NCBI GenBank assembly: GCA_965242865.1
Contig: CBDETK010000013.1
Location: forward strand, 5,216,001-5,280,000
Length of the DNA stretch: 64,000 bases
Source: Candidatus Latescibacterota bacterium
Lineage (GTDB): Bacteria; Latescibacterota; UBA2968; UBA8231
Reading direction: 5' to 3'
Shown here piece by piece: positions 1 to 5,419 of this stretch. Position 1 is the first letter of the stretch; each line of letters opens with the position of its first letter. The notes below the pieces were generated by a model that saw nothing but the letters and a program-made list of their open reading frames with translations, was not told the DNA's origin and made no database searches. A program made the translations under genes and the position numbers.

Positions 1-423
1 GGCGATGGACTCGGCAAACTGCTGGCGCGCCTAGAGGCCGAGCTGCCCTGCGGCCCCAAGCTCTACCCGGACGACATGGTCGCCGAACAGCCCGAGCGGT
101 TTTTTGCCGCCGAGCGCATCCGCGAGGTCGCTTTTGAGCATCTCGAAGACGAGCTTCCCTACATGATCAATGTCCACCTTGAGGAATTTCGCCAGCGCAC
201 AGGCCGCAAAACGTACATTCGCGCCATTCTCTACGTCGGGCGCGAGAGCCAAAAGGGCATCGTCATCGGCAAGCGAGGAACGCGCCTGCGGTCCATCGGC
301 CGCCAAGCGCGAGCCGCCGTAGAGGAGCTACTCGACGCGCCCGTCTATATCGACCTGTGGGTAAAAGTCCGCCCAAACTGGCGCGACAAAGAGCGCGATC
401 TGCGGGAGTTTGGGTATCGCTAG
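1..423 (+). CDS. era: GTPase Era, C-terminal part with KH domain (5' end outside window)
   Basis: Frame open from base 1; EELPY-like 'LEDELPY', 'RESQKGIVIGKRG' and 'LWVKVRPNWR' are Era KH-domain signatures. Confidence 0.95.
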   Translation, partial: GDGLGKLLARLEAELPCGPKLYPDDMVAEQPERFFAAERIREVAFEHLEDELPYMINVHLEEFRQRTGRKTYIRAILYVGRESQKGIVIGKRGTRLRSIGRQARAAVEELLDAPVYIDLWVKVRPNWRDKERDLREFGYR

Positions 424-438
424 GGCAAGGCGCGGCGA

Positions 439-852
439 TTAGGACTTGAGCAACGTTATGCTCATCATTGGAAAATGTTGATCGAAGGCAAACGCTTGAT
501 CGATTCTATGCTTGCGACAAACAGCAAAACTAGTGCAATCGGTGAACGATAGTTTTACTGAATTGTATTGACAAAAAATCCGCTTGGCTTCTCCAAACAG
601 AGTACTATCAATTTTTTCGACCATTAAACTACCTGCACTTTCATAGCGTTCAATATGGTTAAGAAATTCCACGGCTAGCGCGTGATTCGCTTTACGCCGA
701 ATAAACGTTGTGGTCTCACCAATCACGTAATCTGTCGTTAAAAATTGAACGCTCTGCCTTCCTAGGTCGTCGTAAATTTTCAAAGCGTCTTCATGGTGTT
801 GATCGTTCCGATCTAAATAGGCGACCCAAGCCCCTGTATCGACAAAAATCAT
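439..852 (-). CDS. vapC: PIN-domain ribonuclease toxin (VapC family)
   Basis: 137 aa; 'IFVDTGAW', 'TTDYVIGET', 'SFTDCTSF', 'AFAFDQHF' carry the conserved acidic PIN residues; start overlaps the upstream stop (ATGA). Confidence 0.92.
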   Translation of the reverse strand: MIFVDTGAWVAYLDRNDQHHEDALKIYDDLGRQSVQFLTTDYVIGETTTFIRRKANHALAVEFLNHIERYESAGSLMVEKIDSTLFGEAKRIFCQYNSVKLSFTDCTSFAVCRKHRIDQAFAFDQHFPMMSITLLKS

Positions 853-3800
853 GGTTTTGAATCCAGCCCATAAATAATTTGGTCGTGGTTGAGAGAGCCA
901 TCGGTTCGGTCCGATTCATAGGCTCCAGCCAACTCGCGAAAAACTTCATACCCTTCTTTTCTTTTGGTGAAAATGTTGGCCGCTTCCAACTTAGGTAACT
1001 CCTTCACAATCGCCACCGTCTCCACACTCACCGCGATCACCTTCCCGAGCAGCTTGACGATGTACTGCGGATCATCCGACCGATTCGGGTCGTTGACAAT
1101 GCCGCTGCGCTCATCCGTCTTGACGGCATATTGATCGACGACCCATTCCAACGCCGACCGATTGCCCAGCCGATAGTCAAACGCCGCGGGCGGAATGCCA
1201 ACCAGCGTCAAGAAGTCGTTGTACTGAATCTGTGTCTTGTCTTTGGACAGCCGCATCTTTGCGACGCGCCAGTCGAGCGGCAAGTCTGGATCTTCAACGA
1301 ACTCAAGCTGATATTCGGGCACCTCTTCATAGCTAACGTGAATCTCGGCCAGCCGCTTTCCCGCTTTCGCATAAGCCCAAAAATTTGGCTCGTAGGGAAT
1401 GCGCGGCAATGCGCGCTTGAGATTGGCTTGATACCGAGCGCGGTATTGCGGGTGGTGCAACAAGCCATACACATAATGGAAAATGTCCCATTTGCCGATG
1501 GCGTCGTCTCGGTAGTTCAAGCGGAATCGCGCCAACGTTGTATCTGTTATGTTCTCGCGGCGGTTGATGCCGTCTGCGTCGTAAATGTAAAAGGGAAAGC
1601 ATTGGGAACTGTCGAGGGAGGTCAACGCCAAGCAGGGGATCATATCGGTGCAAAAACACCAATAAGCAGTACGGCCTCCAGCCCCCGGAACGATGATCAC
1701 CTGATTTTCCGCTTCAGTCTCTGGCGTGGGAAAAATAGACGGAAATACTCCCACTCTATCGTTCATCATTCTGTCAAAGTAAAAATTCGATTTTGTAAAG
1801 GGTCGATAGAGCGAACATCGCATTTTTTTGGGGGCGAATTCTGCGATTTTTCCGCTCTTCAGCTTATTTTTTAATGTTGAACTCCACTTGATTTTTGCGT
1901 CATCATACTCGACAAAGTCATCAACCTTCGTCTTTTTATCGGTCCGTTCCCATCTATCGACCTCTGCGTTATAAACACCAATCATCCGCTGGATCTTCGC
2001 AGCGAGCGCAGCTCGGTTAAAGTCGTACACCCAAGCGTCTCGCCCGGTATTGACGCCGCTGCTATACGTCTGAAAAATCACCGCCTCCTTGCTCTTGCCC
2101 GCCTTCGCTTCTTTGCTGCCCAGCGGAAGAAACGCAGCAAATTCCCGGTTTTGCAGCCCCTCGGTAAGCCAAGTATGTCGCTCGTCCGGTACTACCTCCT
2201 TCCATTCCACATTCCCGCAATGCCCCTTCTCATCGAGATAGCGATACTTCTCCTCCTTGCGCCAGTCCTTCTCGACACCGAAATAGAAAATTTTCGCCGC
2301 GGTCGCCGCACGATCGCTCCTTTTTACAAACAGGTTGATACTCACTCCAACCTGAATTCCAAAGACATTGTGAGTGGTCCCTGAGAGCTTTGGATTCTTG
2401 CGAACATTTCCACCCAAATCGAGCACGTATATTGCATCGAAATCGTCTGCGAGGTGTTTTCGCATCCCGTCAAACGCTATCCCATCGAGAAAACCATTAT
2501 TCGTTACAAATGCGACGATACCTTCCGCGCCGATCCGATCCGCAGCCCACCGAATCGCCTTTGTGTACGGGTCTTGTAGCTGCCTTTTAAGCGTCGCCTT
2601 AGAATCCTTGGCATACGTAGCCTTCACCCGCGCATCCATCGTCTCGTACTGCCGATTCTTGTTGTTGTCATTCTCGTTGACTTGACCGACATTGTAGGGC
2701 GGATTGCCGATAATCACAAACATCGGCGTCTCCTTCTGCCGTTCAACACGCGCCGTATTCTCCGCCGTAAATAGGGCCATTTGCACTTCTTCTGCCAACT
2801 CGAACGTATCCACCAAGCATATTCCCGCAAATGGCTGATAATATCCCATTGCCTCGTAAAATTCGTGCTCGATGTTCATGCTCGCGATGTAATACGGCAG
2901 CAACATCACCTCATTGCAGTGCAGATCGGAAGCATACTTACCTTCAAGCGAGGTCTTGCGAATCGCGCGCATCGTGCGGGCGATAAAATTGCCGGTGCCG
3001 ACAAACGGATCGATGATGTGAACGCCGGCGTCGGAAAGCGAGCGGCCAAATTCGGCCTTTAGAATGTGCTCGACACTTCGCACCATAAAATCGACGATCG
3101 ACTGCGGCGTGTACACAATCCCGTGCGTATCGGCGATCTCGACTGAAAAACCCTGAAAAAACTGCTCGTACACCGCGTTGAGGAAATGCTGCTTTTGGGC
3201 AAAGTCGCCGATAGTGCTCCCAGTGCGCTCAATCGCAGCGTAGAAGCGGTCGAGGCTTTGCAGGAAACCGGCGCGGTTAAAGGACCGCGACGTGAGGGCG
3301 TCAATAACCTTTTCGATCTCGGCGGCGATGACATTGCGGCGCGTAAAGTCTGGGTTGCTGAACACCGTGCGGAAAATCCGCTCGGTCAAAAGGTGCTGGA
3401 TGAGCATCTCCTCGACCGCTGCGTCCGCGAGGTTTGGATTGATCGACGAGCGACATTTGGCGAGAAAATCGGCAAAGGCGGTGGCAAACCCACGATTGTT
3501 TTGCCGTTCCCGCTGAATTTTCGCCGCCAACCCACGCCCGATCGCCGGCACCTTGCCCTTGAACTGCGCGACCGCCGCTTCCCATTCGGCGATCGCCTGC
3601 GGGCGGTGCGAAAAAAAGGCTGTAAGCGTCTCGATCAGCCGTTGTGGATCGGTCACATCCTCGTCTAAAACAGGCTCGCCGCGTTGCCAAAGAATCGCCC
3701 GAGCCGGCGTCTGAAACAGGATGTTGTCGCTGGGATACCCGGCCGCAAACTTGCGCTGCACCTCGGCTTGCAAGTCATCGTCCATATCCTTGGCTTCCCA

Positions 3801-4049
3801 AACCCCGTGCAGCAAGTTAAAATCGTCGATCAACGCGCCATCGACGACGATTCGCCTATTGCGACCACAAGCGATGGCATACTCGGGAACGAGCGTCCAG
3901 TTGACCTGTCGCCCACACCATTCGAGCAGTGCTTGAAACGCCGAGCGCACCGAGGTTTCATTCGTCACCCCAAGCCGCTCAAATTGCTCAAGCGATTCGT
4001 AGTACGCCTTAACGGGCTTATGCGTTGATTTGAGCTTGAGCGTCGGCAT
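849..4049 (-). CDS. Single-polypeptide restriction-modification enzyme (Type ISP/IIG-like, no helicase): PD-(D/E)XK nuclease, N6-adenine MTase, TRD, plus antitoxin-like C-terminal tail
   Basis: N-terminal 'VDG...WEAKD'; MTase motifs 'DPFVGTGNF' and 'GNPPY'; ISP-type C-terminus 'YRLGNRSALEWVVDQY...VNDPN'. Confidence 0.88.
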   Translation of the reverse strand: MPTLKLKSTHKPVKAYYESLEQFERLGVTNETSVRSAFQALLEWCGRQVNWTLVPEYAIACGRNRRIVVDGALIDDFNLLHGVWEAKDMDDDLQAEVQRKFAAGYPSDNILFQTPARAILWQRGEPVLDEDVTDPQRLIETLTAFFSHRPQAIAEWEAAVAQFKGKVPAIGRGLAAKIQRERQNNRGFATAFADFLAKCRSSINPNLADAAVEEMLIQHLLTERIFRTVFSNPDFTRRNVIAAEIEKVIDALTSRSFNRAGFLQSLDRFYAAIERTGSTIGDFAQKQHFLNAVYEQFFQGFSVEIADTHGIVYTPQSIVDFMVRSVEHILKAEFGRSLSDAGVHIIDPFVGTGNFIARTMRAIRKTSLEGKYASDLHCNEVMLLPYYIASMNIEHEFYEAMGYYQPFAGICLVDTFELAEEVQMALFTAENTARVERQKETPMFVIIGNPPYNVGQVNENDNNKNRQYETMDARVKATYAKDSKATLKRQLQDPYTKAIRWAADRIGAEGIVAFVTNNGFLDGIAFDGMRKHLADDFDAIYVLDLGGNVRKNPKLSGTTHNVFGIQVGVSINLFVKRSDRAATAAKIFYFGVEKDWRKEEKYRYLDEKGHCGNVEWKEVVPDERHTWLTEGLQNREFAAFLPLGSKEAKAGKSKEAVIFQTYSSGVNTGRDAWVYDFNRAALAAKIQRMIGVYNAEVDRWERTDKKTKVDDFVEYDDAKIKWSSTLKNKLKSGKIAEFAPKKMRCSLYRPFTKSNFYFDRMMNDRVGVFPSIFPTPETEAENQVIIVPGAGGRTAYWCFCTDMIPCLALTSLDSSQCFPFYIYDADGINRRENITDTTLARFRLNYRDDAIGKWDIFHYVYGLLHHPQYRARYQANLKRALPRIPYEPNFWAYAKAGKRLAEIHVSYEEVPEYQLEFVEDPDLPLDWRVAKMRLSKDKTQIQYNDFLTLVGIPPAAFDYRLGNRSALEWVVDQYAVKTDERSGIVNDPNRSDDPQYIVKLLGKVIAVSVETVAIVKELPKLEAANIFTKRKEGYEVFRELAGAYESDRTDGSLNHDQIIYGLDSKP

Positions 4050-4075
4050 AGCAAACCTCCATTTCAGAATCTGTC

Positions 4076-5419
4076 CTAAAACCTGCTGCGATTCAGTACG
4101 GCCCCCAGGCGCGGAAGAATCCGCGTCGGGACGAGGCGGCGATATTCATCCCAATACGCGCCATACTTTTGCTGGCAGCGCTCTTCGTCGCGCCGGGCGC
4201 GATGCAGCAGCAAAACGGTCAGAACAATCACGTAAAAATAGGGCAGGACATGCGAAAACAGGGCCGGCACCGTCCAAAAGAAGGCCGCCAAAATCTCCGG
4301 CGCGTAGTGAAAGTGCCGCGCCACGCCCCACCAACCGGACGCCAACAAAATGGTCTCTTTCTCCACGCCGTCTTCCGCGCAGTACTTGGCGACAATGAGC
4401 CGCGGCTTTTTCCCCCAGATCGTGCATTTGCCGCCCGTTGCCCGCACTACTTGACGTTGCCTATCGGCAAAGTAGTTGATCATCACCGCCCCTACTCCCA
4501 ACACCGCGATCGCGGTCGACCACGCCATACCGAGCTGATGCGGGTGATGCACCAAGTACAAAATGGGCGACGTATAAATCGCCGGCACCCACACCAAACA
4601 CCCCCAGCAAGTCATAAATCCGGCCCGGTCGTGCATGATGTCAATCGAACAGAGATAACCCGTTTCCCATACAAAAAATTTGACCAAGTAAGTCAGCATG
4701 ACGATTAGGGCCACCACCATTGAATCGCTCAAACCGCCGAGCTCGGCCTGCTTGGCCGCAAACGACAACACAATGATCGGCCACCCCATCATGCCAAAGC
4801 GACAATTGGTAAACATCTTGACGTCCCAGCCCAAGATGCGCGGGTACAGTTCCGTTCCCCAGTAATAATCGAAAATAAAATTGCCGCTCCGACCGTCCGA
4901 CCCCGAGGGAAAAAACCGGCCCTTGTAGTACAGCAACAAACAGAACGCCAAACCAAAGACATTCAACGCGCCGATAATGCCCGCAAAGTTGTCATAGACG
5001 ATCGTCGGCTCAAACCAATGGAACGCAAAGCCACCCAACAGGAACAAGCCCAGCGAAATCAAAAAACACGCCAAGCCATTGGCGCTGTACACCGGCACAT
5101 AGCCCTTCGGCGTAGTCGGCCCGCAAAAGCGCGGCCCCGGCACCACGCGCATCAACAACAATTGCACCGCAGCAAAAGTGCCGATGATTTTCCAGCCGGC
5201 CGCCGTGCCCCAGACGACCGGCTCCCAGACAGACACCAGTTTTGCAAAAAAACCAACGGCGATGACCTGCTCTACGAAAGATGCCACCGAGCCTTGGTGG
5301 TTCACATTGATCTCCCACATCAACAAGGCCGTTGAGGGGCAGCAAATCAGCAAGAACAGCGGCGCCAATGTATGGTGAAAAAGATGTCGTATTTTACTCT
5401 TCTTAGCTTGAGTATCCAT
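4076..5419 (-). CDS. Sterol delta-7 reductase (DHCR7/DWF5, ERG4/ERG24 family) membrane protein
   Basis: 'GTELYPRI', 'DIMHDRAGF..CWGCLVWVP', 'LLASGWWGVARHFHY', 'HRARRDEERCQQKYG'; multiple TM helices. Confidence 0.9.
   Translation of the reverse strand: MDTQAKKSKIRHLFHHTLAPLFLLICCPSTALLMWEINVNHQGSVASFVEQVIAVGFFAKLVSVWEPVVWGTAAGWKIIGTFAAVQLLLMRVVPGPRFCGPTTPKGYVPVYSANGLACFLISLGLFLLGGFAFHWFEPTIVYDNFAGIIGALNVFGLAFCLLLYYKGRFFPSGSDGRSGNFIFDYYWGTELYPRILGWDVKMFTNCRFGMMGWPIIVLSFAAKQAELGGLSDSMVVALIVMLTYLVKFFVWETGYLCSIDIMHDRAGFMTCWGCLVWVPAIYTSPILYLVHHPHQLGMAWSTAIAVLGVGAVMINYFADRQRQVVRATGGKCTIWGKKPRLIVAKYCAEDGVEKETILLASGWWGVARHFHYAPEILAAFFWTVPALFSHVLPYFYVIVLTVLLLHRARRDEERCQQKYGAYWDEYRRLVPTRILPRLGAVLNRSRF

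Follow-up and report, generated by a model that had tools for sequence, protein, structure and literature searches.

What holds a VapC toxin in check when no separate antitoxin gene lies beside its own? The question is raised by a locus of Candidatus Latescibacterota bacterium, a sponge symbiont, at the beginning of a stretch of 64,000 nucleotides (nt) of its genome (assembly GCA_965242865.1, contig CBDETK010000013.1, positions 5,216,001 to 5,280,000 of the forward strand), hereafter the window, whose own numbering is used throughout. Here vapC (439–852, minus strand), encoding a PIN-domain toxin of 137 amino acids (aa), directly follows the gene of a single-chain type IIL/IIG restriction-modification (RM) enzyme (849–4049, minus strand; 1066 aa), the last 46 residues of which (1021–1066, encoded at 852–989 on the minus strand) form a VapB-like tail. 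Homology, linkage and conservation of the sequences concerned give good support to the view that the RM enzyme carries the antitoxin of this VapC. The reading that we favour, and hold to be probable, is that a row of three genes was reduced to two when the body of the middle one, called C600 (a label coined in this analysis), was deleted, leaving an RM enzyme with a VapB-type toxin-binding tail together with VapC. Toxin binding, toxicity, the order of events and the coupling of the two genes are what we infer within this reading.

A vapC gene overlapping that of a restriction enzyme with an antitoxin-like tail

The vapC product matches the Pfam PIN family (E 1.3e-13), and its nearest solved toxin is VapC20 (5wzf_A, E 2.2e-12). 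The acidic residues D5, E46, D105 and D124, described as intact in an earlier note on this DNA, are all present and are invariant across 12 homologues. The same note had reported that vapC lacks a neighbouring antitoxin gene, and the list of open reading frames (ORFs) bears this out: those of at least 40 aa that otherwise occur between positions 400 and 1100 are out-of-frame overlaps alone. One ORF in this region (791–949, minus strand) was rejected as a gene, being closed in the two closest relatives (L011 and L012). There is also no space for a separate antitoxin gene, since the end of vapC and the 3′ end of a convergent gene (1–423, plus strand) are 15 nt apart; by eye we take the convergent gene to be era, a name not confirmed by family search. 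At its other end, the vapC start codon ATG overlaps the TGA stop codon of the RM gene in the sequence ATGA (849–852), as had been noticed before, and this arrangement, which suggests translational coupling, is also found at 13 of 16 close homologous loci. The lower GC content earlier ascribed to the tail and vapC is likewise evident (0.457 and 0.417, respectively, versus 0.534 for the RM body); the value for purD is 0.652. Searches of the window's own genome revealed no second VapC of this clade, and no tail other than the one under discussion.

The tail extends past the end of the enzyme family. The Pfam Type_ISP_C match stops at RM residue 1000, the matches to the PADLOC IIG model and to the solved chain 7lo5_A stop at 1019, and the paralogue in the same genome as well as the RM orthologues terminate 3–19 residues past the string 'GLPxL'. 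The approximately 46 aa previously seen to follow the usual RM end, i.e. residues 1021–1066, are outside all of these models and orthologues. The core that is conserved begins near residue 1032 (EGY) and extends to 1062, with the consensus EGYAILDELVGFxESDRTDGSVNHDExIYGLRSKP. An assembly artefact is ruled out by the presence of the fusion in G139, by three protein clusters in a collection of 5.8 billion clusters in which RM and tail are joined, and by contigs across the junction from two sponge metagenomes of another study. These contigs cover positions 439–1400 unbroken, with 13 and 22 substitutions, and there is one in-frame 3-nt deletion in vapC; the frame of the tail is open on them, free of frameshifts and of the stop codon whose presence before the tail had earlier been considered. 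One further run (X7) contributed short pieces alone and is silent on the junction.

Homology of the tail to known antitoxins became apparent through the partners of more distant toxins. With the tail alone, Pfam, NCBIfam and PADLOC gave nothing credible (a DUF2525 match at E 0.028 was put down to chance), a shared-word search for small proteins resembling it gave none at E <= 10, and phmmer with the 46 aa returned 9 matches, comprising 7 C-terminal tails and 2 false ones (P0005 and P0008). Distant VapCs (33–41% identical), on the other hand, are paired with ordinary small antitoxins of 74–93 aa, which have the C-terminal pattern '..D.S..HD.yLY' in common. Aligned by hhalign, a profile of 14 tails matched 9 small antitoxins with a probability of 94.5% (E 7.4e-8) over 24 columns at the C-termini, and BLASTP aligned the tail with one small antitoxin at 46% identity over 24 aa (E 2e-6). 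In Pfam scans of 8 small antitoxins, one showed RHH_1 just over the cut-off, three showed weak PhdYefM matches under the cut-off, and four showed none. These alignments support homology between the tail and the C-termini of canonical small VapBs paired with related VapCs, and they confirm the likeness to the C-termini of small PIN antitoxins proposed in the earlier note. In type II antitoxins it is the C-terminal region that binds the toxin.

The association of tail and toxin was approached from the VapC side in 168 genomes of the phylum, with tail state judged by eye on the C-termini. At 15 of the 16 closest VapC loci (57–88% identical) the tail forms the end of the upstream ORF, which overlaps the start of vapC or adjoins it; this is the conjunction of tail and adjacent vapC that a survey of homologues had been proposed to look for. 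At the sixteenth (L083 / L024, G086), the sole close vapC found without an adjoining tail, an ORF resembling that of an insertion sequence lies within the tail, after ...NHDEV, and vapC still reads intact. No case of an intact and still coupled vapC lacking the tail occurred among the loci examined, and the tail is strictly tied to this clade of VapC.

Carriers of the tail and probable origin of the fusion

A scan for the tail in one genome per species yielded 43 loci, in metagenome-assembled genomes (MAGs) of Latescibacterota and Poribacteria, one each of Nitrospinota and Desulfobacterales, and several of uncultured bacteria. The carrier is related to C600 at 35 of these loci (full-length at 24), an RM enzyme at 2, a DUF2806 protein at 1, a HicB-like protein at 1, and a small protein or remnant at 4. 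Searched with a profile, the protein collection yielded 282 clusters of at least 82 aa. Among the 126 proteins classified, 124 of them with the tail, there were 72 full-length and 33 partial C600s, 7 DUF2806 proteins, 3 RM enzymes, 3 HicB-like proteins and 8 others (2 false matches, 1 HTH_17 protein, 2 small proteins of a 'MKVEAI' type and 3 unclassified small proteins).

C600, the main carrier, is a family of about 590–640 aa (L052, L055, L058, L060, L062 and others) with no match in Pfam, PADLOC, PHROG or the PDB. Its alignment features an invariant R-x5-H (R500...H506). Partial C600s retain the first ~250 or the last ~170 residues, and the tail is in frame every time. Kinship with HEPN/Abi_C was rejected, as hhalign of C600 residues 380–562 against 19 Abi_C segments from the phylum gave 0.1%. 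DUF2806 carriers (187–359 aa) bear the tail before vapC at L074 / L043 (G090) and in P0044, P0046, P0050, P0059, P0066, P0095 and P0099. From the tail onward, L074 is 88–92% identical in DNA to C600-type loci, which suggests that the carrier was exchanged recently, at a point immediately before 'EEGY'.

RM genes and C600 are found next to one another in several of these genomes. At 8 of the 43 loci an RM orthologue (64–71% identical over residues 1–1019) immediately precedes C600 or what remains of it, in the same orientation, a ninth has a 3′ RM fragment before C600, and another RM copy lies 4.7 kb before a DUF2806 carrier. G102, of a sister genus, has the row RM-C600-vapC. The distance from RM stop to C600 start varies from the overlapping TAATG in L071 to about 40 nt in the Poribacteria loci L060, L075 and L077. 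In such rows GC content descends from RM through C600 to tail and vapC, the same gradient as in the window. A search that started from the RM side recovered 22 orthologous loci within the phylum. The fused tail occurs at 4, which all belong to the window's genus; C600, whole or as a remnant, comes next at a further 4; and 1 runs into a contig end and could not be judged (G118, whose fusion appears on another contig). RM and C600-vapC are therefore separable modules, often neighbours and not always so.

Because orthologous RM genes stand directly before C600-vapC in related genomes, we read the fusion as the product of an in-frame deletion of the C600 body, which would have joined RM residue ~1020 to the tail. 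Only deletions after which the tail was still read in frame with a translated ORF would survive, VapC being otherwise unopposed. Most likely, then, the fusion is a deletion survivor from an RM-C600-vapC row, filtered by toxin addiction, and not a purpose-built joint, to judge from the gene orders compared.

Whatever its origin, the fusion has been inherited. Four species of the genus share it at the same position in the genome, among them the one represented by the closed chromosome G139, where it lies between the same neighbours; there the RM protein is 91.5% identical and flanking genes are 91–93% identical. Ratios of non-synonymous to synonymous substitution rates (dN/dS) in the three species with an intact fusion, with two mis-registered pairs excluded (L058/L071 for the tail, L060/L064 for vapC), are 0.20–0.26 for the tail, 0.23 for the RM body and 0.36–0.54 for vapC. 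The tail is under purifying selection. Decay is also seen in the genus, at the same site and next to the same convergent gene. In G136 (L095) a single deletion of about 430 nt took vapC and the end of the tail, and in G141 (L111) vapC is a stump of 37 aa, the tail is whole and the RM frame is open over 859 aa.

The restriction enzyme and its neighbourhood

The RM protein matches the Pfam families ISP_coupler (residues 165–280), N6_Mtase and Type_ISP_C (residues 658–1000, E 9.8e-101), the last of which constitutes the target-recognition domain (TRD; 1050–2078, minus strand). The REase_MTase_IIG model of PADLOC spans residues 15–1019, up to profile position 1013 of 1024. Sequence strings along the protein include D70...E85-A-K87, DPFVGTGNF (347–355) and NPPY (449–452), which we take to be a putative nuclease motif of the D...EAK type and methyltransferase motifs I and IV, respectively. 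The closest solved chain is 7lo5_A (1029 aa), presumably DrdV, which is of equal length; its residues 6–1025 align with RM residues 13–1019 (E 1.2e-202). The enzyme thus has the architecture of single-chain, DrdV-like type IIL/IIG enzymes, with an N-terminal nuclease, a connector, a gamma-class adenine methyltransferase and a C-terminal TRD. DrdV itself is described as a type IIL enzyme of 1029 residues with nuclease, connector, methyltransferase and TRD, which cleaves as a DNA-bound tetramer (10.1101/2021.01.06.425610). The likeness holds along the full length of the protein and in the order of the domains; the difference lies in the coupled toxin gene and in a C-terminal extension of 46 residues derived from an antitoxin.

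The enzyme had earlier been called Type ISP-like, a classification that has to be abandoned. LlaGI and LlaBIII, which belong to that type, carry a RecA-like ATPase/translocase between nuclease and methyltransferase that is missing here: they were matched solely over their residues 582–1403 and 746–1575, and scans against Pfam and NCBIfam revealed no ATPase family in the RM protein. Since it has no helicase or ATPase, and since the matches to LlaGI and LlaBIII begin only at their residues 582 and 746, the RM enzyme is not of Type ISP.

The RM-vapC block is bordered on its left by a gene for a membrane protein of 447 aa (4076–5419, minus strand), syntenic in G139, and on its right by the convergent gene at 1–423, syntenic in G139, G136 and G141. 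The gap between the RM start and the stop of the membrane-protein gene is 26 nt (4050–4075), and 18 nt in G139. A scan of positions 4050–4075 for a consensus promoter gave nothing convincing, and the RM-vapC pair may be co-transcribed with the membrane-protein gene.

A paralogue of the RM enzyme is encoded elsewhere in the same genome (G000:C13:1502815-1509063; L002 and L003), with 75% identity over residues 1–886 and 76% over residues 889–1021. It has an ordinary short C-terminus and, in the TRD, an insert of about 80 aa of Pro/Thr/Asp-rich repeats. Downstream of it lie a gene with a SIR2_2 domain (E 5.5e-20) and then a gene for a NACHT/STAND-like NTPase, possibly another pair of effectors downstream of the same enzyme.

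In Poribacteria, loci without RM before C600 (L059, L064, L072 and L076) have an AAA_15/AAA_21 ATPase (469–499 aa) and a protein of about 167 aa upstream. An ORF of about 165 aa precedes RM at L060 and L075; it is of similar size to the ~167-aa protein, the identity of the two being unconfirmed. The downstream gene at several poribacterial loci is one that we take, by eye, to be coaBC. At these loci RM appears to have been gained or lost at one fixed site.

Weighing of explanations and relation to known systems

In the favoured reading, VapC would be translated by re-initiation at the ATGA overlap, so that RM-tail and VapC would be produced in near-equal amounts, and the tail would occupy VapC and thereby silence it. 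The RM enzyme would in this way serve as an antitoxin without the usual DNA-binding domain, and as a side effect the RM gene would be tied to the toxin by addiction. Several observations weigh against this. Two of the five species of the genus have lost vapC and yet retain all or part of the RM gene, which argues against an indispensable coupled function, and the dN/dS of vapC lies above that of the tail. At 13 of the 22 RM loci neither C600 nor vapC is found downstream, and at 31 of the 43 tail loci no RM gene stands beside C600-vapC; the linkage of RM may be merely that of a defence-island neighbourhood. The three RM-fused VapCs form one clade in a FastTree phylogeny (support 91), sister to all others (support 80), and because this clade is sister rather than nested, the VapC tree speaks neither for nor against a direction from C600 to RM. 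An intact vapC goes with an intact tail at 31 of 31 loci among the 43, yet loci found by their tails cannot reveal a vapC lacking one, and the VapC-first search with its 16 loci is alone unbiased in this respect. Finally, a sequence search of the PDB with the tail and with small VapBs gave no solved structure containing the tail.

Of the interpretation put forward in the earlier note, the antitoxin-like tail (94.5% in the profile alignment), the linkage to a clade of VapC and the RM enzyme as sole carrier of the tail have stood; that the tail binds and neutralises a toxic VapC is a probable reading, and a role as guard a conjectural one. A guard would provide backup abortive infection, in that a phage degrading, inhibiting or unfolding the RM enzyme would free VapC and so stop translation, as PrrC does upon inhibition of EcoprrI. 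RM-vapC linkage beyond a single phylum of sponge symbionts, an AAA_15/AAA_21 ATPase adjoining poribacterial loci, and the persistence of the fusion through speciation under purifying selection are what might be expected of such a device. Other carriers are also defence-like, with DUF2806 said to resemble Abi-alpha of the 'Belisama' system in one report (10.1101/2024.07.02.601686), and RM guardians appear as an accepted class in another (PMC12707154). Nevertheless, nothing points to a trigger, the fusion resembles a deletion product rather than a designed joint, the tail also occurs on ordinary small carriers of antitoxin type (HicB-like, HTH_17), and vapC has gone from G136 and G141 with RM sequence retained; we consider a guard unlikely. 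Viral contigs contained no relative of the tail, which is uninformative either way as to phage pressure. It is tempting to take the idea further and to see in the RM enzyme the sensor of a two-layer defence, with VapC dimers sitting on RM tails and possibly bridging them, and in the peptide and VapC a portable 'dead-man switch'. A phage that destroyed, unfolded or sequestered the RM enzyme would then release the PIN RNase, shutting down translation, and sponge symbionts would have attached the cassette to different defence proteins (RM, C600 and DUF2806). This, too, we would call doubtful.

Still less probable is that the locus is inert debris, with a VapC that is non-toxic or unexpressed, a functionless tail, and a fusion left as a neutral scar by the decay of genes in a defence island. 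Decay is indeed common in the family, vapC being broken or absent at 10 of the 43 loci and altered by D124Y in L061, and to this may be added the two losses of vapC within the genus and its dN/dS of up to 0.54. A search for RNA runs containing the locus listed none, a result that is neutral as to expression. The gene is nonetheless full-length, with its four acidic residues, in the window, G139 and G118; the low dN/dS of the tail is not that of debris, both frames are open in strain variants from other metagenomes, and truncation of the tail is confined to a species that has lost vapC (G136). An alternative to which we give hardly any credence is that the tail is made as a small protein of its own from the in-frame TTG at position 989, in which case RM would not be the antitoxin. 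In the window AAGGAG does stand 9 nt before this TTG, but the same position reads GAGAAG in G139 and GAGAAA in G118, where TTG is replaced by CTC, and no in-frame start codon before the tail is shared by the window, G139 and G118. As neither TTG nor AAGGAG is conserved, in this genus the tail is translated together with the rest of the RM protein.

With the tail understood as the probable vestige of a deletion, the pair can be set against known systems. As in type II VapBC modules, a PIN toxin with four acidic residues follows directly on an antitoxin element, with stop and start codons overlapping, and the C-terminal peptide is homologous to small VapBs of related VapCs. Unlike in these modules, the antitoxin element is the C-terminal stretch of 46 aa in an enzyme of 1066 aa and lacks a DNA-binding domain of its own: in place of a small antitoxin with N-terminal RHH, AbrB, Phd/YefM or HTH there is an RM carrier. 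The antitoxin is hence not expected to regulate its own operon. The nearest published concept is that of antitoxins built of several domains, in which neutralisation falls to a small element, as in the NetFlax network, e.g. Panacea with the Phd-C neutralising element (PMC10440598). A short C-terminal neutralising element behind a large unrelated domain, and one element on several carriers, would be common to both; the carriers here are a restriction enzyme, a family-less protein of ~600 aa and DUF2806, with no Panacea domain. The resemblance to PrrC with the type Ic enzyme EcoprrI, and to RM guardians generally, as presented in PMC1484252 and PMC12707154, is that an RNase toxin is genetically tied to a restriction enzyme, and would be physically held by it if the tail binds. 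The differences are that VapC is a PIN protein and not an ABC-ATPase/anticodon nuclease, that the RM enzyme is a single-chain type II enzyme and not type I, that the link is provided by an antitoxin peptide covalently joined to the enzyme, and that no activating phage factor is known. A restriction enzyme as antitoxin carrier is undescribed in the portions available of the literature searched, supplementary tables excluded; the supplements of PMC10440598 and PMC11980606 may list antitoxin architectures relevant to this novelty.

The rows from which the fusion would have arisen occur in MAGs of both Latescibacterota and Poribacteria, several of them from sponge metagenomes, and C600, with 105 of the 126 classified clusters, represents a sizeable family hitherto without annotation. 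If the tail neutralises VapC, it would be a natural antitoxin shrunk to a peptide of about 35 aa that works on the ends of large, unrelated proteins, and the minimal neutralising element of a VapB family would become directly testable. The locus would then also provide a simple candidate for a covalent 'RM guardian', and it would show toxin addiction filtering which deletions a genome survives.

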